Positions 43,030-49,380 of a stretch of DNA of 64,000 bases are shown here, piece after piece. Made by a program: the position numbers and the translations under genes. Each line of letters opens with the position of its first letter. Position 1 is the first letter of the stretch. The notes under the pieces were generated by a model, which did no database searches, was not told the DNA's origin, and saw only the letters and a list, made by a program, of their open reading frames with translations. The DNA is from Calditrichia bacterium (GTDB lineage Bacteria > Calditrichota > Calditrichia > RBG-13-44-9 > J075). The stretch spans positions 273,839 to 337,838 of the forward strand of contig JBOEGD010000009.1 of assembly GCA_050633245.1 (NCBI GenBank). The letters run 5' to 3'.

Positions 43030-46000
43030 ATGACGCGTTCGAGGAAAGACACTCCAAAACCAGAGTTAACCAGAAATCCGCTTTTTCAGCGCTGGATCTC
43101 TGATTTCCCTGACCTCACTGCCCATATTCACGAAAAAGAATGGGCGGGGTTCTTCCAGTACATCATTCTGGCACTGGCCGGGAAACGTACGGAGCGTCTC
43201 TATCGGTTTCTAGACTTCTATCTCCCCCGTTTAATTCGAAACGACATTCCAAGCAAGCGTGTTCTGGAGAGCTTAACCAGCTTGCGTGCACTTTTCCTGG
43301 CAGAAATCCCTCAGTCGCTCTCTGTTGAAAAGCGAGATCGCGTTGCCGGTCAGATACTGGATCACTTCGATTCGGTCTTGCTATTTACCCAGGAAAAATT
43401 TCTTCGCTGTGCCGAGCCGGAAATGAATTATCTCAATCATCATCACGAGGGACAGCTTGCAAAATTGAAGACCATGGCCTTCCATGTACGCGGACGTCGC
43501 TTCTCTGGACAGGGCTACCAAAACCCGGCTTTCCATCAGTGGACGGATACCGATCCCAGCGAACATATTGCACGTGCGGTTTGGGAAGTTATTATTCATC
43601 CGGATGATTATCTTGTACTGCAATCCCGATTGCGAGAGATGATCGAATCGCAGCAGGCAATATACGAATTAAACTACCGTTTGAAGAACCACAAAGGAGA
43701 CTGGGAGCACGTTGTTGAACTCGGCCGTATTCTTTATGATGAATCGCGCAGAGTGGAAGCATTTATCGGCGTAATTACGGTGGCTAGTGCCTCATCGCAG
43801 CATCTGATTCAGGACTTTGAGTTAGCCAATATCTTTCGTTTCCTGCTGGACGATCAGAAAGACCTGGCCATGCTGCTGGATATGGAAGGTCGCATCCTGT
43901 TTGCAACTCCCAGATTAAACCCTTATTTAAAGACAGAGAACAACATTGACCTTGCCTTAACCGATCACATTTTCTTCGACTTGCTGGACAGAGATAATAA
44001 GATCGTAGCGCGCCGCTCTTGGGAACAGTTTCTCGAGCATCCGCAGGATGGCCGGAAAATGCTGTTAAAGTTACGTGATCGCAATAAACAAACACGAATT
44101 ATTGAGTTCAGCTACCAGTCGGTATACAGCTCATTTAAGAAAAAGCTAATTTGCCTTTCCGGTAAAGCAATAGCCAAGCGCAGTAGCAGTGAGGTGTATC
44201 TGGAGCAAAGCTCAACCTTGCTAAATCTGTTCATGGACAATGAGTCTCCCGAAAAGCAGCAGTATCAAAAAATGCTGGATATTGCTCTTAAGTTAATTCC
44301 GGGTGCTCAATTCGCGACCCTGCTTCAAAAAAATCATCTTGGCTATATATTCACTGCCGGTGTTGGATTCGAAACGGCTCCGCTTCAAGATCTGGTGCTG
44401 CTCGACAAAACGACCGTTCGCAAATTAAAGTCGCTGGATGAAATTTCGGGTATTGATGATACCGTAAAGCGAATTACGATGCGCGAGGTTCGCGAAGAAC
44501 TGTACAGCGCCCTGCCAGAGGCCCGGCGTGAGCTGATTCTGAATCAGGGACGAATTGCTTCTGCCAATGAGTTGCTTGCAGGTAAAATTTTTGTGCGCGG
44601 AGAATCTCATAGTCTAATCGTGCTTGGAACTGTCGGAGAAGAAAATCACTTCACCGAAAACGACCTTTTTCTTTTGCAACTTCTAACAAAGCAAGCGTCG
44701 CTCCTGTTGGGTCATTCCATTCTGGGCAAAGATCTCATAGAAGCAACGCGCAACTATAGCCAGTTGTTGCAGCACGCTCCTGTCGCCTGCTTTGTTATCC
44801 AGGACAATCGCATTCAGTCATTTAACCCGTTTTTCAAAGACATGCTCGGATACGGTCGCGACGAAATGTTAGTCCGAGACTTGTGGAGACATTTGCACCC
44901 GGATGACTTACAGCGTTTCCAAATGGATATTGCAGCTGTTACCGATCGCTATAGCGTGATGGACATGGAAATTCGCTTGATAGACAAGCAAAAACAGGAA
45001 CTGTTTTGCAATGGAACGTTATTGAATGTGCAGCTGAACGGCCAGCCGGCTGTTTTGTGTATCGCTTTCGACCAAAGTAAGGTAAAGGTGCTGGAAGAGC
45101 AACTCTCAGCACAAAATCGCGGAGAAGCAGATTCTGCAATGCTGGCCGGAATTGCCCATGATTTCAACAATATTTTAGGAACGGTCATTCCTGCATCTCA
45201 GCTTATCATGAAGCGCCCTCGTTCCTCAAAAACTCACAATCGGGCCAAAATCATCTTTATGATGGCGCAACGCGCCTACCAAATGAATCAGGGGTTGTTG
45301 AAACTTCCTGAGCGTGAAAGCAAAGAAGGGCTGGAAAAAGTAGATATCACCATGCTTATGCGCGATAATCATAAGACTTTTCGCAGAATTCTTGGTGAGT
45401 CTGTGAAGCTGGAATACGATTTAACCGACAAGCCAATGCCTATCGAAGGCGATTATAAACAACTTGTTCAGGCATTGATAAATCTATTGATTAATGCACG
45501 CGAGGCCATGCCGGAGGGTGGTATCGTAACGGTAGGCTGCTCCACTCAACAGATAAAAGAGCAGGATGGCACGTCGGGAGAATTTCATACTGTAGAACAT
45601 GTCGTCATTTCGATTCAGGATACCGGACGAGGTGTTCCGGCAGATATTCGGACCAAAATATACGATCCCTTCTTTACAACAAAACCGAAAGGTCGCGGTG
45701 CCGGTCTTGGCTTAAGTATTGTGCAGCGTATTGTGAAACATCATCACGGTTCAATACTCCTTAATGGAAATGGCACAGGCACGACTTTTAAGATTTCCTT
45801 ACCCCTACTTCAAGAGAAGAAACCAGATATTCTGACAAAAAATGGCAGCAATGGAACCGCTACCAATTCAAATGGCAAAGCGGCGACAAACGGTACGGTG
45901 CCCAAAAACGGTACGCCAGCTGGAAAAATTCTGGTAGTTGATGATGAGCAGTATTTGCGTGAGGTGTTTGTCAGCATGCTAAAACTGAACGGCTATGGCT

Positions 46001-46320
46001 GCTTTGAAGCCTCCTCCGGAGCACAAGCCATTGCCCTTTATACGCAGCGTCAAGATGAAATTGATCTCATAATTCTCGACTATGCTATGCCGGGCATGTC
46101 TGGGGCAGAAGTGTATAAAAAGCTGAAAGAGATTAATCCAAAAGCCAGAATAATGCTTTGTACCGGCTATGCGGATCAAAAAGAAATATCAGGTTTTATA
46201 AACAATGGTGAGATGGAGTATCTTCCAAAGCCATTCACTATTGAAATATTGAGTAAGAAAGTTAAACGCGCACTAAAACCGCGACGTACGCTTCAGCAAA
46301 ACAAAGACCGCGAGCAATAG
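43030..46320 (+). CDS. Cytoplasmic hybrid histidine kinase (helical N-domain, PAS, GAF-like, PAS, HisKA, HATPase, REC)
   Basis: IHPDD and LHPDD PAS motifs, AGIAHDFNNIL, NAREAM, DTGRG, FFTTK, GAGLGL, ILDYAMP. Confidence 0.9.
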   Translation: MTRSRKDTPKPELTRNPLFQRWISDFPDLTAHIHEKEWAGFFQYIILALAGKRTERLYRFLDFYLPRLIRNDIPSKRVLESLTSLRALFLAEIPQSLSVEKRDRVAGQILDHFDSVLLFTQEKFLRCAEPEMNYLNHHHEGQLAKLKTMAFHVRGRRFSGQGYQNPAFHQWTDTDPSEHIARAVWEVIIHPDDYLVLQSRLREMIESQQAIYELNYRLKNHKGDWEHVVELGRILYDESRRVEAFIGVITVASASSQHLIQDFELANIFRFLLDDQKDLAMLLDMEGRILFATPRLNPYLKTENNIDLALTDHIFFDLLDRDNKIVARRSWEQFLEHPQDGRKMLLKLRDRNKQTRIIEFSYQSVYSSFKKKLICLSGKAIAKRSSSEVYLEQSSTLLNLFMDNESPEKQQYQKMLDIALKLIPGAQFATLLQKNHLGYIFTAGVGFETAPLQDLVLLDKTTVRKLKSLDEISGIDDTVKRITMREVREELYSALPEARRELILNQGRIASANELLAGKIFVRGESHSLIVLGTVGEENHFTENDLFLLQLLTKQASLLLGHSILGKDLIEATRNYSQLLQHAPVACFVIQDNRIQSFNPFFKDMLGYGRDEMLVRDLWRHLHPDDLQRFQMDIAAVTDRYSVMDMEIRLIDKQKQELFCNGTLLNVQLNGQPAVLCIAFDQSKVKVLEEQLSAQNRGEADSAMLAGIAHDFNNILGTVIPASQLIMKRPRSSKTHNRAKIIFMMAQRAYQMNQGLLKLPERESKEGLEKVDITMLMRDNHKTFRRILGESVKLEYDLTDKPMPIEGDYKQLVQALINLLINAREAMPEGGIVTVGCSTQQIKEQDGTSGEFHTVEHVVISIQDTGRGVPADIRTKIYDPFFTTKPKGRGAGLGLSIVQRIVKHHHGSILLNGNGTGTTFKISLPLLQEKKPDILTKNGSNGTATNSNGKAATNGTVPKNGTPAGKILVVDDEQYLREVFVSMLKLNGYGCFEASSGAQAIALYTQRQDEIDLIILDYAMPGMSGAEVYKKLKEINPKARIMLCTGYADQKEISGFINNGEMEYLPKPFTIEILSKKVKRALKPRRTLQQNKDREQ

Positions 46321-46379
46321 AGCTTACCAGCGAAACATCTTTTTTGACAAAATAATATAAGTTTTCAGTGGACTTTTGC

Positions 46380-46408
46380 TTGCATAAACGACTGTATTCG
46401 CTTATTAT
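46380..46408 (+). promoter_or_regulatory. Candidate sigma70 promoter
   Basis: TTGCAT-N17-TATTAT, about 410 nt upstream of the AP2-like gene. Confidence 0.45.
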
Positions 46409-46740
46409 TTTACTCAGCACTTTCCACTGTAGCTGATTAGTAAAACCTAATAACAGCAATACATCTCAAACTCGGCAGCATCAATCGAGTCTCAGTAGAT
46501 CTGTTTCGTTTTGCTGTTACAAAGAGTCTGAACGTCCGTTATGCGTTCTACGTTCAGTACAAACTCCATCCAACCGGCAGGCTACCCTGACGCGCCCCAG
46601 GCGCCTGGCCCGGACGACCGGTATATGTACCGGATGATGCTCACCCATCAGTCAATATTATATGGCGCGACGTCTTTAGATAAGACCGTTGTAAATCTAT
46701 GTATTCTCTGGAAATACCAACAGAGTCTGCGGCTCTGTAC
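46408..46740 (+). ncRNA. Candidate structured RNA or long leader
   Basis: A consecutive series of inverted repeats (detailed in findings). Confidence 0.4.
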
Positions 46741-46819
46741 ACTTTTCCGACACGTATACTTCTACCGCAGATATTAATTCGGTTATCATTTACACTTAGC
46801 ATTATGGAGAAACCTTCAA

Positions 46820-47800
46820 ATGAACTTTAGCCAGTCAAAGTCTTCTTCCGAGGACCATGGAGTTGAGCTGGCAGAGGTTATGAAATGGGCGAAAGACAAG
46901 ACGAAAGATAACACACTTGGGTTGCGTTTTATCGTACGTCGTAAGGATGGAAACTTTTGGTATGTGCAAATTCGTGTCATGGTAGACGGCAAGCGTCGTT
47001 TTATGCAGGGAAAATCGTTTTATGACAAAGATTTCTCTTCATATCAAAAATCATTTGATGCCGCTGTAAGCTATCGCGACATCGAAGCACCACGTTTTTT
47101 TGCCGAAGTTGGCTATGACCCAACGCTTAGAACGCGCCCCAAAAAGCCACCGAGGCAACCGAAATTCACAAAGCGCAAGGAAGCTAAAAGCGGACTTCTT
47201 TCTAATATTCACTACATTCACCTTTACAAAAGAGGCGGTAAATATACACGCTGTGTACTTGAAGTTACCGTTAACATTCGCGGGAATAAATATCACTCAA
47301 CGGCTTACTCTTATGCTTTTTCAAAGTATGGCGGAAAAGAACAGTCAATAAAGATAGCCAAACAAGACCGCAATAAACTTGCAAAGCTTGTACAGCAAAA
47401 AGCCATGGAGTTGAACAACGAAGCAACGAAGAGCCCGTCAGAGATCCGCGATATCATCAAGGCTATAAAAATCAATCGCACGCCACCCTTTACCGAACGC
47501 GATCCGGATAAATTTGTAAAGCGTTCAACGAGCGATAATTATTGGATCGTTGCGGTAAGAAAAAAGATCTGGGGAATTTATCATCGCGCCGGAAACCGCC
47601 GTTTCTACGACGAGGACTATGGCGGAGCCCATAAAAGCAAAATTGCTGCGCGAAAGTTCGCCGACCTGATGGAAACAGGCATCATAAATGAATTCAAAAG
47701 ACTACGCAGCAGCAAAATAAGCAGTCAGGATAAAATACGCGAGCGCTTCAAAGAAGTAGTATCCCGCGTTATCAGCGATTTTGAACAGGAGTCTCGCTGA
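46820..47800 (+). CDS. Basic protein with three AP2-like DNA-binding repeats
   Basis: Three beta-beta-beta-alpha-like units ending KSFYDKDF...SFDAAVSYRD, YAFSKYGGKEQSIKIAKQDR, RRFYDEDYGGAHKSKIAARKF; GGAGA RBS. Confidence 0.62.
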   Translation: MNFSQSKSSSEDHGVELAEVMKWAKDKTKDNTLGLRFIVRRKDGNFWYVQIRVMVDGKRRFMQGKSFYDKDFSSYQKSFDAAVSYRDIEAPRFFAEVGYDPTLRTRPKKPPRQPKFTKRKEAKSGLLSNIHYIHLYKRGGKYTRCVLEVTVNIRGNKYHSTAYSYAFSKYGGKEQSIKIAKQDRNKLAKLVQQKAMELNNEATKSPSEIRDIIKAIKINRTPPFTERDPDKFVKRSTSDNYWIVAVRKKIWGIYHRAGNRRFYDEDYGGAHKSKIAARKFADLMETGIINEFKRLRSSKISSQDKIRERFKEVVSRVISDFEQESR

Positions 47801-47802
47801 TT

Positions 47803-49380
47803 TTACAGCGGGATATTCCCATGCTTTTTCGGAGGATTTTTATCCACCTTGGTTTGCAAGAGCTCGAGCGCACGACAAATTCGCTTGCGAGTATTCTGAG
47901 GCTCAATTACCTCGTCTATATAACCATGCTCTGCAGCAAGGTAGGGATTGGCAAACTTATCGCGATATTCTGTTTCTTTTTCCGCAAGTGCTTTCTCAGG
48001 ATCATCCGCACTGGCAATTTCACGTTTGAAGATAATCTCTGCAGCTCCCTTGGGACCCATAACGGCAATCTCCGCAGATGGCCAGGCGTAATTGACGTCT
48101 GCCCGAATATGTTTTGAACTCATCACATCGTAGGCTCCACCATAGGCCTTGCGCAGAATTAACGTTATCTTCGGCACTGTCGCTTCACAGAAAGCATAGA
48201 GCAGTTTCGCACCATGCTTAATAATGCCATTCCATTCCTGCACCGTTCCCGGTAAGAAGCCCGGTACGTCAACAAGCGTAACAAGCGGTATATTAAATGC
48301 ATCGCAGAAGCGCACGAAACGCGCAGCTTTTAGTGACGCATCAATATCGAGAACACCAGCGAGCACCGCCGGCTGATTTGCAACGATGCCAATTGGAAAT
48401 CCATTCATGCGGGCAAACCCAACGACAATATTACCGGCATAGGCCTCATGAATTTCAAAAAAGTCTGCATCATCAACAACCTTTGCAATTACCTCTTTTA
48501 CATCGTATGGCTTTCCAGGGTTATCCGGGACTATGGTAAGCAGGTCGGCATCCTCACGAGCAGGATCGTCATTAGACGACATCCGCGGTGGCATATCTGC
48601 ATTATTCAGCGGCAGGAAGCCCACCAATTTGCGAAGTCGCTGTAGGCAATCGACATCGTTTCTGGCAACCAGATGAGCGACACCACTTTTTGCAGCATGA
48701 GTTCTTGCGCCACCAAGATCATCGAAAGACACTTCTTCATGTGTAACCGTTTTCACCACATTCGGTCCTGTAACAAACATATGGCTTGTGTCTTGCACCA
48801 TGAAGATAAAGTCGGTTATTGCGGGAGAATAGACTGCACCGCCGGCGCAGGGGCCCATAACGGCGGAAATTTGGGGTACCACGCCACTTGCGAGGGTATT
48901 GCGAAGGAAGATGTCTGCATACGCTCCAAGGCTTACCACCCCCTCTTGAATGCGCGCACCGCCACTATCGTTTAATCCGATAACCGGAATGCCGATTTTC
49001 ATTGCCATGTCCATCAGCTTGCAAATTTTGCGGGAATGTGCTTCGGACAGGCTGCCGCCAAAAACCGTAAAGTCCTGACTAAAAACACAAACCATGCGAC
49101 CATCGATGCGACCGGTACCAACAACAACGCTGTCTCCAAGGAATCGCTGTTTATCAAGTCCGAAATCCGTAGTATGATGTCGAACCAACATGTCAATTTC
49201 TTCAAAGCTGTCTTCATCCAAAAGAACTTCAATACGTTCGCGTGCTGTAAGCTTACCGCGATCATGCATTTTTTTTATACGAGATTCTCCCCCGCCCTGC
49301 TTTGCTTCTTCACGTAATGCCTTTAACTGATCAATCTTTTCCTGCATGCCCGGGTGAGCGCCATCCTTTTTGTTAGCCAC
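47803..49380 (-). CDS. pccB: Acyl-CoA carboxylase carboxyltransferase (beta) subunit (PccB/MmdA type)
   Basis: [64 protein letters not shown]. Confidence 0.93.

Follow-up and report, generated by a model that had tools for sequence, protein, structure and literature searches.

The locus described here is located in a stretch of 64,000 nucleotides from a Calditrichia bacterium, hereafter called the window, and contains an ORF (46820..47800, + strand) for a basic protein of 326 amino acids with three AP2-like repeats and, after them, a C-terminal helix. The upstream neighbour is a gene for a hybrid histidine kinase (43030..46320, + strand) with Pfam matches to PAS, HATPase_c and receiver domains, and downstream is the convergent carboxyltransferase gene pccB (47803..49380, - strand), the stop codon of which is 2 nt apart from that of the AP2-like ORF. 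The placement between a kinase gene and pccB, suggested by an earlier inspection of the letters alone (the sequence-only reading), is borne out by these flanks. Together with its upstream leader, the AP2 gene constitutes an extra 1.48-kb piece with the kinase gene on one side and pccB on the other. No tRNA or tmRNA gene was found in the region 46000-48000.

The sequence-only reading had asked whether the locus is an insertion, and the gene order in related genomes indicates that it is. In the closest relative (L040) the order is as in the window, with a protein that is 75% identical and a unit that is likewise located between the kinase gene and pccB. In three other genera (G062, G067 and G064) pccB and a similar hybrid kinase gene are convergent direct neighbours, 17-60 nt apart and without the AP2 unit, such that the unit is polymorphic for presence and absence at a fixed site. 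The AP2 gene is found elsewhere in the genome in two of these (G062 and G067). Across the genera the unit occupies different genomic places, and decayed second copies of the gene were observed in two genomes (G061 and G054), while both the gene and the leader are present in one copy in their own genome. From this we infer that the AP2 gene arrived between the hybrid kinase gene and pccB in the lineage of the window. The ancestral gene order is a reconstruction, since the direct adjacency of the kinase gene and pccB was seen in 3 of 13 further genomes of the family whose flank could be read and since the region downstream of pccB is variable among the relatives.

AP2 domains have become familiar mainly through the transcription factors of plants and apicomplexans and, among prokaryotes, through homing endonucleases and integrases; their fold is an antiparallel beta-sheet packed on a C-terminal alpha-helix. 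The protein encoded at the locus is rich in lysine and arginine, as noticed previously (40 K and 31 R, 21.8% of the residues; pI 10.05), and contains a single cysteine. Its repeats, all encoded on the + strand, cover residues 33-100 (repeat 1, 46916..47119), 127-200 (repeat 2, 47198..47419) and 230-298 (repeat 3, 47507..47713). Comparisons of sub-alignments with hhalign yielded probabilities of 98% for repeats 1 and 3 (E = 1.3e-13) and 90% for repeats 1 and 2 (E = 1.4e-6), but only 2% for repeats 2 and 3. The three repeats resembling AP2 domains that were recognised by eye are thus homologous to each other, with a connection to AP2 that goes by profile and predicted fold and not by a direct Pfam match.

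A search with the Pfam AP2 model (PF00847) gave no row for the protein even at E <= 10, and the gathering score was not reached. The connection is instead through small proteins with two AP2 domains from the same phylum (2xAP2 proteins, 147-175 aa, in sister families), which score on Pfam AP2 directly: of two that were scanned, one passed the cut-off of 33.3 with 37.7 bits and the other scored 30.9. Repeat 1 matched the first AP2 domain of 19 such proteins with a probability of 97% (E = 1.2e-10, hhalign), and the stretch FSD/FYD..YGG...A..A..[FY]RD is common to both. Repeats 2 and 3 gave 9.5% and 21% against the 2xAP2 family directly, so that their link to AP2 runs through repeat 1 only. The 2xAP2 proteins, which have two domains as compared to three here, were present in 23 of the 36 genomes of two families (f5 and f6) and in none from the window's own family at the threshold used. 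Among 12 distant profile matches, 2 passed the Pfam AP2 cut-off and 7 listed AP2 at E <= 0.1. Because PF00847 itself gave no row, we file the protein as a divergent member of the AP2-integrase superfamily and not as a PF00847 hit.

The predicted structures have the sheet and C-terminal helix that are typical of the AP2 fold. AlphaFold models consisted of sheet-plus-helix modules with a pLDDT of 81 for the whole protein, in which repeats 1 and 3 each formed a short-stranded sheet and a long helix. Repeat 2 folded alone (pLDDT 86) showed strands at 2-14, 17-29 and 32-42 and a helix at 49-79. The best structural matches to repeats 1 and 2 were chains of the Toxoplasma gondii mitoribosome, an assembly with mtAP2 proteins (PDB 9g6k, 9i05 and 9hqv; a name, AP2IX-6, was given for chain 9hqv_Yn only and not for the two top chains), and the tandem AP2 domains of Plasmodium falciparum SIP2 (PDB 6sy0). 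Both VIA searches were topped by AP2-containing entries with Z values of 7.3, 7.0, 6.4 and 6.0, where values below 8 can mean merely a common arrangement. The mitoribosome chains accounted for the top values of 7.3, covering residues 34-98, and 7.0, and SIP2 for the value of 6.4 at 22% identity; the rmsd of the top three was 2.5-3.4 over 59-70 residues. These matches are to eukaryotic proteins with 9-22% identity, and Foldseek placed 6sy0_A at E = 0.12 with no row at E <= 0.001. The arm-type domain of the HPI integrase was also among the fold matches (3jtz_A, Z = 4.8). Searches against PHROGs, NCBIfam and PADLOC returned no match for the protein, and a PDB sequence search with the family profile retrieved only designed helical proteins that matched the C-terminal helix.

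The nearest clusters in the ESM Atlas contain bacterial proteins of 288-350 aa that are automatically annotated as 'AP2/ERF family transcription factor' (score 0.91; 188 and 185 features in common). Like the protein studied here, they are bacterial and devoid of nuclease and integrase domains; they are mostly from Pseudomonadota, carry Pfam AP2 on 45% and 21% of the members, and gave no HMMER sequence match beyond an E of about 1e-5 over one repeat. No functional characterisation of these clusters was found in the literature searched. The premise of the sequence-only reading that bacterial AP2 domains usually accompany HNH endonucleases or integrases was therefore too narrow, since stand-alone bacterial AP2 proteins exist, and its description of the protein as a stand-alone triple-AP2-like form agrees with our finding of no nuclease or integrase domain. 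Homologues amounted to 14 proteins in a collection of 5.8 billion and to 16 representatives among 1.84 billion, and full-length copies were present in 8 of 86 Calditrichota genomes, all from a single family. The triple-AP2 protein is restricted to this family.

Homing endonucleases of the HNH-AP2 type and integrases with AP2 or arm-type domains belong to the same domain superfamily but have a catalytic domain that is lacking here, where the gene is single-copy. The location of the AP2 gene varies between genomes, which is a point of likeness with these systems. The idea that the locus is the remnant of a mobile element is unlikely: scans of the protein and of 14 neighbouring proteins from five genomes detected no HNH, integrase or transposase domain, the genome lacks a second copy, and IMG/VR and phage records contained no relatives. 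An inverted-repeat scan of the leader revealed no terminal repeats.

Upstream of the gene, the promoter candidate TTGCAT-N17-TATTAT of the sequence-only reading is present as described (46380..46408, + strand; TTGCAT at 46380-46385 and TATTAT at 46403-46408) and is conserved in L040 as TTGCAT-N17-TATAAT, with 21-22 of 30 columns identical compared to a background of about 10 of 30. The site was not reported by a scan for consensus promoters since its -35 hexamer agrees with the consensus at only 3 of 6 positions. Its conservation in L040 implies a leader of about 400 nt, more precisely a putative start around position 46415 with some 405 nt of 5' leader. The one RNA data set compared with the stretch, a poly-A RNA run of a host organism, had 0 reads on it and does not bear on its transcription. 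There is no terminator-like site on the + strand between the kinase stop codon and the ORF, so read-through transcription from the kinase gene is possible. Inspection by eye of the segment between the GC-rich block described below and the ATG revealed nothing convincing in the way of a sigma-54 or Bacteroidota-type promoter.

The leader contains all seven stems listed in the sequence-only reading, each of them also as a hairpin in the MFE structure, and the inverted-repeat scan returned three of the stem pairs. On the + strand, the 421-nt leader folded with -111 kcal/mol as compared to -91.8 +/- 5.4 kcal/mol in 100 dinucleotide shuffles (z = -3.56), only 1 of which folded as well, and on the minus strand the z value was -1.98. 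The fold excess over shuffled sequences is real but unexceptional among long non-coding DNA of this genome: in a control of 35 random 400-nt pieces taken from its long ORF-free gaps, 6 had z values <= -3.1 and 10 had values <= -2. The leader of L040 gave a z value of only -1.80.

Nor was the hairpin-rich structure retained among relatives. Stems 1-3 (46408-46445, 46451-46519 and 46528-46557, + strand) are present in the window but not conserved; identity to L040 is about 30%, at 8-11 or 6-14 of 30 columns, and the 149-nt segment that holds them had z values of -1.95 on the + strand and -1.74 on the minus strand. The RNAalifold consensus for the two leaders reached only -31 kcal/mol over 534 columns, and a search of Rfam 15 with the region 46200-47000 at E <= 10 gave no real match, only a spurious miRNA row at 13.6 bits. 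The leaders of the other family members are unrelated in sequence and about 55 to 440 nt long, including three of only about 55-90 nt (L009, L004 and L041). We found no leader sequence or structure common to the whole family, and no promoter-like site or palindrome common to the leaders of the other members. The claim of a hairpin-dense RNA coupled to the protein was not supported by these comparisons. A conserved, covarying structure was not seen across the family, and the predicted hairpins are kept only in a GC-rich block, between the window and L040. Most of the leader, with most of the noted hairpins included, is a fast-evolving spacer. The upstream comparison nevertheless revealed four islands that are conserved between the window and L040, namely the promoter-like site, the GC-rich block, a CTCTGT hexamer and the ribosome-binding site.

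The GC-rich block (46574..46649) has a G+C content of 66% as compared to 42.5% for the leader, and is 88% identical to L040 over 84 nt (blastn), where coding DNA is 74% identical. In its core (46586-46637), which is nearly invariant, 50 of 53 columns are identical with one 1-nt indel. The core includes a perfect 12-nt palindrome, CCAGGCGCCTGG (46597..46608), and a 6-4-6 dyad, CCGGTA-N4-TACCGG (46618..46633), both identical in L040. The palindrome is found once in the 6.35-Mb genome, with about 0.2 copies expected, at a distance from the gene start of -223 in the window and -213 in L040; the dyad also occurs once. The block as a whole is unique in its own genome, a BLAST search with 101 nt of it retrieved only its own copy among 86 Calditrichota genomes, and the exact gapped pattern of both dyads had no match in genome_contigs. 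When 16 loci were searched with a covariance model of the block, the two source sequences were the only ones recovered, and in 16 family genomes only its own copy was; the next best match (23 bits) was antisense inside an ORF on C20 with only the ACCGGTA-N-TACCGGAT part in common. There is no sign of a regulon, because the motifs of the block are not enriched elsewhere in the genome.

Folded as RNA, the block had z values of -1.74 on the + strand and -0.21 on the minus strand in the window, and -1.43 in L040. The same hairpins, P1/P2 and P3, were predicted in both genomes, and the only change in a predicted stem turns a C-G pair in the window into a U-G pair in L040. This change, which only RNA tolerates, and the better fold of the + strand lean toward RNA, although covariation is unreadable in two sequences that are nearly invariant. 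Coding explanations for the block were also considered and rejected. A 78-aa ORF on the + strand (46541-46777) is broken by a 1-nt indel in L040. On the minus strand, ORFs of 43 aa in the window and 47 aa in L040 cross the block with a stretch of 16 residues in common, but this is the invariant stretch only, and beyond the block the two ORFs have different starts, ends and frames due to two 1-nt indels. The conservation of the block is at the nucleotide level, with would-be third codon positions included.

The remaining islands are close to the gene. A Shine-Dalgarno sequence, GGAG (46806..46809, + strand), precedes the ATG by 10 nt, and L040 has conserved GGAGAAA and also the 11 nt with which the ORF begins. 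In the MFE structure, the hexamer CTCTGT (46733-46738) is the 3' arm of the hairpin ACAGAGTC/GGCTCTGT (46720..46738, + strand), but it is alternatively predicted to pair with ATGGAG (46804-46809) at the ribosome-binding site, the corresponding partner in L040 being ACGGAG. RNAalifold paired columns 437-442 with 508-513 in both genomes, one of these pairs being G-U in the window but G-C in L040. L040, with a 3-nt deletion, lacks the hairpin itself. In a 32.5-kb contig of the same genus (run X2) that is 94.5% identical across the locus, T46726C turns a U-G pair of this hairpin into C-G, and A46680T falls in a loop. An upstream ORF of 43 aa (46699-46830) overlapping with the start codon has not been retained in L040, where the aligned place has no + strand ORF of at least 20 aa.

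Because most of the leader hairpins are not conserved, the unit has more the look of an ordinary regulator gene, specific to its lineage, than of a machine made of RNA and protein, and we take the triple-AP2 protein for a DNA-binding regulator or a chromatin-like factor and not for an RNP component. Our tentative preference, held with a little less than even confidence, is for a DNA-binding regulator that is confined to this lineage and has its expression controlled via the GC-rich block. According to this model, the AP2 gene would have brought along a sigma-70-like promoter of its own and about 400 nt of leader, and selection would act on four short parts: the promoter, the GC-rich dyad block, the CTCTGT hexamer and the ribosome-binding site. 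The dyad block, 53-65 nt in size and about 170-235 nt downstream of the putative start, is most likely the cis-regulatory site of the AP2 gene. It may serve as a DNA operator inside the transcribed leader, where a bound protein would block the elongating RNA polymerase. This protein could plausibly be the GC-preferring AP2 protein itself, which would give negative autoregulation. A dimeric DNA binder requires just such a perfect 12-nt palindrome without a spacer, whereas an RNA hairpin could do with less, which argues for the operator. The RNA folding of the block is also ordinary. There is a model for such a roadblock in the prokaryotic AP2 repressor CasPR of phages, which, according to the preprint describing it, binds with its AP2 domain to a 30-bp site inside transcribed DNA and blocks RNA polymerase; the preprint also describes AP2 proteins as often binding short G/C-rich motifs (10.64898/2026.02.23.707548). 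The triple-AP2 protein is not itself a CasPR, and the resemblance is a mechanistic precedent only. CasPRs need a Cys-rich CapR domain and are encoded by prophages of Bacillota, with cas genes as their targets, whereas our protein has the single Cys, no phage relatives and no phage context at the locus.

Alternatively, the leader may act as RNA, a reading that we consider distinctly less probable than the operator but still worth weighing. It would then be a long 5' UTR with a conserved GC-rich element of three hairpins and translational control by a CUCUGU anti-Shine-Dalgarno sequence that either pairs within the hairpin at 46720-46738 or masks the ribosome-binding site, and the GC-rich element could be the target of a ligand or protein. 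The strand difference in fold excess of the whole leader is in line with this, as are the conserved promoter-like site about 405 nt upstream, the P1/P2 and P3 hairpins with U-G for C-G, the pairing of the hexamer with ATGGAG or ACGGAG, and the T46726C and A46680T changes that improve a stem pair and fall in a loop, respectively. Against it are the modest z values for the block and for the whole L040 leader, the comparable folding of 6 of 35 random gaps, the poor consensus energy, the lack of an Rfam family, the loss of the 46720-46738 hairpin in L040 and the leaders of about 55-90 nt in three family members. It is also improbable, and more so than the RNA leader, that the leader has no function tied to the AP2 gene, in which case the hairpins would be chance products of an AT-rich spacer and the GC-rich block an independent element, for example a site bound by another regulator or a gene for a small RNA or peptide on either strand. 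A fold excess within the range of other long gaps, the lack of conservation in most of the leader and the minus-strand ORFs with their common 16 residues would fit, but the block keeps its distance to the gene start, lies downstream of the conserved promoter and upstream of the ribosome-binding site that both belong to this gene, and is conserved at 50 of 53 nucleotides as compared to 74% in neighbouring coding DNA, with ORFs that diverge outside it.

The sequence-only reading had suggested an RNA-plus-protein module. In the strong form of this idea, the protein would bind its own leader RNA as an RNP or for autoregulation at the RNA level, or the unit would be the remnant of a mobile element carrying both. 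The protein, the insertion and the conserved upstream promoter-like site have stood, but the hairpin-dense RNA as a family feature has not, and we now regard the module as quite unlikely. AP2 domains can bind RNA: the T. gondii mitoribosome has four AP2 proteins as integral binders of its rRNA (PMC11652630, PMC11742926), and chains of this mitoribosome were the top fold matches. The insertion at this site, the different places of the unit among genera and the decayed extra copies could point to mobility. However, the family has no leader sequence or structure in common and three leaders are about 55-90 nt long, the gene and its leader are unique in the genome, and the searches for HNH, integrase and transposase domains, for viral relatives and for terminal repeats in the leader were all negative. 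A more specific variant, that the protein binds the GC-rich element as RNA and sets its own translation with a CUCUGU/GGAG switch, seems to us very unlikely; if true, it would make the protein a bacterial AP2-fold autoregulator that binds RNA, a counterpart of the AP2 rRNA binders of apicomplexan mitoribosomes.

Returning to the DNA-binding regulator, what is new is a stand-alone three-domain form of AP2 that is unrecognised by Pfam, NCBIfam and PHROGs and belongs to one family of an under-studied phylum. Its value is modest, in the form of better annotation and one clean test case, and it does not suggest a new kind of system. The apicomplexan proteins illustrate that AP2 domains in tandem can read a pair of DNA half-sites or bind RNA, and the GC-rich dyad block is a ready candidate binding site for asking what a bacterial multi-AP2 protein recognises, be it DNA or RNA.

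The 326-aa ORF (46820-47800, +) lies on contig C9 of a 6.35 Mb genome (G000) whose relatives are named Calditrichota. It is separated by 499 non-coding bases from the stop of a hybrid kinase gene (PAS/HATPase/receiver; 43030-46320) and is followed by pccB, a carboxyltransferase gene in convergent orientation (47803-49380, -). A gap of 2 nt separates the two stop codons (47798-47805), with no terminator-like site between or just past them, so the two transcripts should overlap antisense. The sequence-only reading had suggested that this locus may be an RNA-plus-protein module, and its description of the DNA was accurate: all seven stems were recovered in place by sequence, inverted repeats and MFE fold, as was the promoter candidate TTGCAT-N17-TATTAT (46380-46408), and the product is K/R-rich (40 K, 31 R, pI 10.05). 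A 43-codon upstream ORF (46699-46830, +) terminates 8 nt within the main ORF in a different frame and is not retained in L040, the metagenome contig with the closest readable relative.

The protein had no significant match in Pfam, PHROGs, NCBIfam or PADLOC. Its family comprises 14 proteins in a collection of 5.8 billion; among 1.84 billion proteins, 16 representatives were obtained at E <= 0.001, only 5 of which reach E <= 1e-10. Full-length genes are present in 8 of 86 Calditrichota genomes, every one in the family of the window, where they occur in 8 of 16 genomes and 5 of 11 genera. In profile comparisons, repeat 1 was homologous to repeat 3 (98%, E 1.3e-13) and to repeat 2 (90%, E 1.4e-6), while the direct comparison of repeats 2 and 3 gave no significance. 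Weak single-repeat matches to the family profile came from two sister families, f5 and f6 (23 of their 36 genomes), and 22 such loci (L010-L031) yielded 19 two-repeat proteins of 147-175 aa, encoded for example at L014:1453-1935 (+) and L010:1285-1728 (-). Their N-terminal halves are highly similar, and the L010 gene adjoins an acetate-kinase-like gene. The two of these proteins that were scanned scored 37.7 and 30.9 bits against Pfam AP2 (cut-off 33.3). Their first domain matched repeat 1 (97%, E 1.2e-10); repeats 2 and 3 aligned weakly (9.5% and 21%). AP2 was detected at E <= 0.1 in 7 of 12 distant representatives scanned, above the cut-off in 2, and the nearest ESM Atlas clusters are bacterial and auto-named AP2/ERF family transcription factor. 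We conclude that the ORF encodes a divergent stand-alone triple-AP2 protein; the earlier assignment holds and now allows firmer wording. The accompanying remark that bacterial AP2 domains usually occur with HNH endonucleases or integrases does not make the stand-alone form unusual.

The AlphaFold model of the whole protein (pLDDT 81, pTM 0.43) consists of three sheet-plus-long-helix modules with disordered basic linkers between them and a C-terminal helix last; repeat 2 modelled alone (pLDDT 86) gave three strands and a helix. Foldseek returned no match to the predicted fold at E <= 0.001. In an exhaustive VIA search, Toxoplasma gondii mitoribosome chains came first for repeat 1 (9g6k_UG, Z 7.3, rmsd 2.9, 63 residues), and the leading matches of repeat 2 alone were 9i05_Xz (Z 7.3), 9g6k_UG (Z 7.0), 6sy0_A of the SIP2 AP2 tandem (22% identical, Z 6.4) and 9hqv_Yn, which is deposited as AP2IX-6 (Z 6.0). 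These mitoribosomes are described as holding four rRNA-binding AP2-domain proteins (PMC11652630, PMC11742926). Since every Z was below 8, the fold matches alone would prove little; they agree with the sequence chain linking the repeats to AP2.

We also compared the surroundings of the gene across the family. Orthologs of pccB were present in all 15 other genomes, 78-81% identical in 14 and 65% in G068. In three genera (G062, G067 and G064), pccB is also convergent with a similar gene for a hybrid kinase (36-38% identity over ~500 residues), the two stops lying 17-60 nt apart, and in G062 and G067 the AP2 gene is at another place. Ten other genomes with a readable flank had different genes after pccB; loci L054 and L068 had no usable flank. 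The neighbors of the AP2 gene vary between genera, with no mobility gene among those scanned. G061 carries a frameshifted second copy in three reading frames (L073, G061:C12:200900-204300, ~1044-1906, -), ~70 kb from the intact one, and in G054 fragments of the N-terminal part of the gene lie on a different contig (L074, G054:C176, ~1172-1512). At 550-770 nt 5' of the G061 gene there is a 61-nt tandem repeat (L002:2982-3198; 3.6 copies, 96% matching), a 34-nt piece of which recurs upstream of the decayed copy (L073:3122-3155). The simplest account is that the AP2 gene is an accessory gene that moved within the family and that, in the lineage of the window and L040, it came with promoter and leader to lie between two formerly adjacent genes.

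To quantify leader folding, we compared 421 nt with shuffled sequences (-111 kcal/mol versus -91.8 +/- 5.4; z -3.56; minus strand z -1.98). Stems excised at their own borders, a biased choice, gave z of -3.6, -3.1 and -2.2, the 149-nt block containing them -1.95 (+) and -1.74 (-), and the 3' third of the leader -0.84. As a harder control, we used gaps without any stop-to-stop frame >= 90 codons from the first 12 contigs, each >= 50 kb (n = 1,285, median 90 nt, 3.7% >= 480 nt). The mean z of 35 random 400-nt pieces of long gaps was -1.51, with z <= -3.1 in 6 and <= -2 in 10. The leader is unusually long; in folding excess it ranks within the top sixth of comparable DNA and does not exceed that range. 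One of the 35 samples folded far more strongly than all others: it came from a long ORF-free gap outside the window (G000:C9:243577-244066, z -9.4), which is probably a structured RNA gene.

Leaders of the remaining family members had no sequence in common with the window, nor with each other outside genus g6. Spacers measured ~60 nt in L004, 88 nt in L041, 276-440 nt in the two loci with a divergent upstream gene (L008 and L003), and 55 nt in L009, 3' of a gene for a 23S-rRNA-intervening-sequence protein. The latter gene (L009:1322-1681, -; Pfam 64.6 bits) lies between the RNase E/G and triple-AP2 genes of G054. In the L004 congeners L005 and L006 the spacer is extended by 150-260 nt of variable DNA, possibly a small repeat element that inserted there; either strand of this DNA folds well (L006: z -2.0, -2.6). 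Fold z of the leaders in these family members lay between -0.4 and -2.6, and the sense strand was not favored. The proposed coupling of the protein to a conserved, hairpin-rich RNA does not pass the test set for it beforehand, since the homologs lack conserved upstream structure.

In L040, gene order (kinase, leader, gene, pccB) is the same, the protein is 75% and the coding DNA 74% identical, and the leaders (499 nt in the window, 467 nt in L040) are alike in islands only. These are the promoter-like site (46372-46416; TATAAT in L040 for TATTAT), the core of a GC-rich block (46586-46637; 50 of 53 columns identical), a segment containing CTGCG-CTCTGT (46707-46746), and GGAGAAA plus the start codon. 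Stems 1-3 were identical in 6-14 of 30 columns. The L040 leader folds with z of -1.80 (+) and -1.74 (-), and the RNAalifold consensus of both leaders is weak (-31 kcal/mol); it retains the block hairpins and, in both sequences, pairing of CTCTGT (46733-46738) with the ribosome-binding site. A run X2 contig, 94.5% identical, covers the locus without gaps; among the 40 of 175 differences listed, T46726C strengthens a stem pair, and two changes, G46538T and C46548G, lie within the stem 3 loop region. Minus-strand ORFs of 43 aa (46517-46648) and 47 aa (L040:1205-1348) run across the block and have an Arg-rich stretch of 16 residues in common; because they diverge in start, end and frame beyond the block, we judged them a side effect of nucleotide conservation. 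The GC-rich block is single-copy in its own genome and is absent from the 85 other Calditrichota genomes and, as an exact pattern, from genome_contigs; a covariance model recovered no other copy.

Domain homology, conservation pattern and gene order being established, we infer that transcription would begin near 46415 and that the GC-rich block, ~170-235 nt further 3', would be the control site. Control at the DNA level is favored by the perfect, spacer-less palindrome CCAGGCGCCTGG, which as RNA could form at most four pairs with a four-base loop, and by the unremarkable RNA folding of the block. It is also favored by the reported preference of AP2 proteins for short G/C-rich sites and by the precedent of the prokaryotic AP2 class CasPR (phage CapR + AP2 repressors), reported to repress by blocking RNA polymerase inside transcribed DNA (both 10.64898/2026.02.23.707548, preprint). 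Control at the RNA level is favored by the sole change in a predicted stem of the block, C-G to U-G, by the block's better folding on the sense than on the antisense strand (z -1.74 versus -0.21), and by the conserved CTCTGT able to mask the ribosome-binding site. On the two sequences compared, either level of control may apply. What survives of the proposed module is a putative control element of 53 nt, nearly invariant and specific to the lineage, 5' of a likewise lineage-specific gene for a presumed multi-AP2 regulator.
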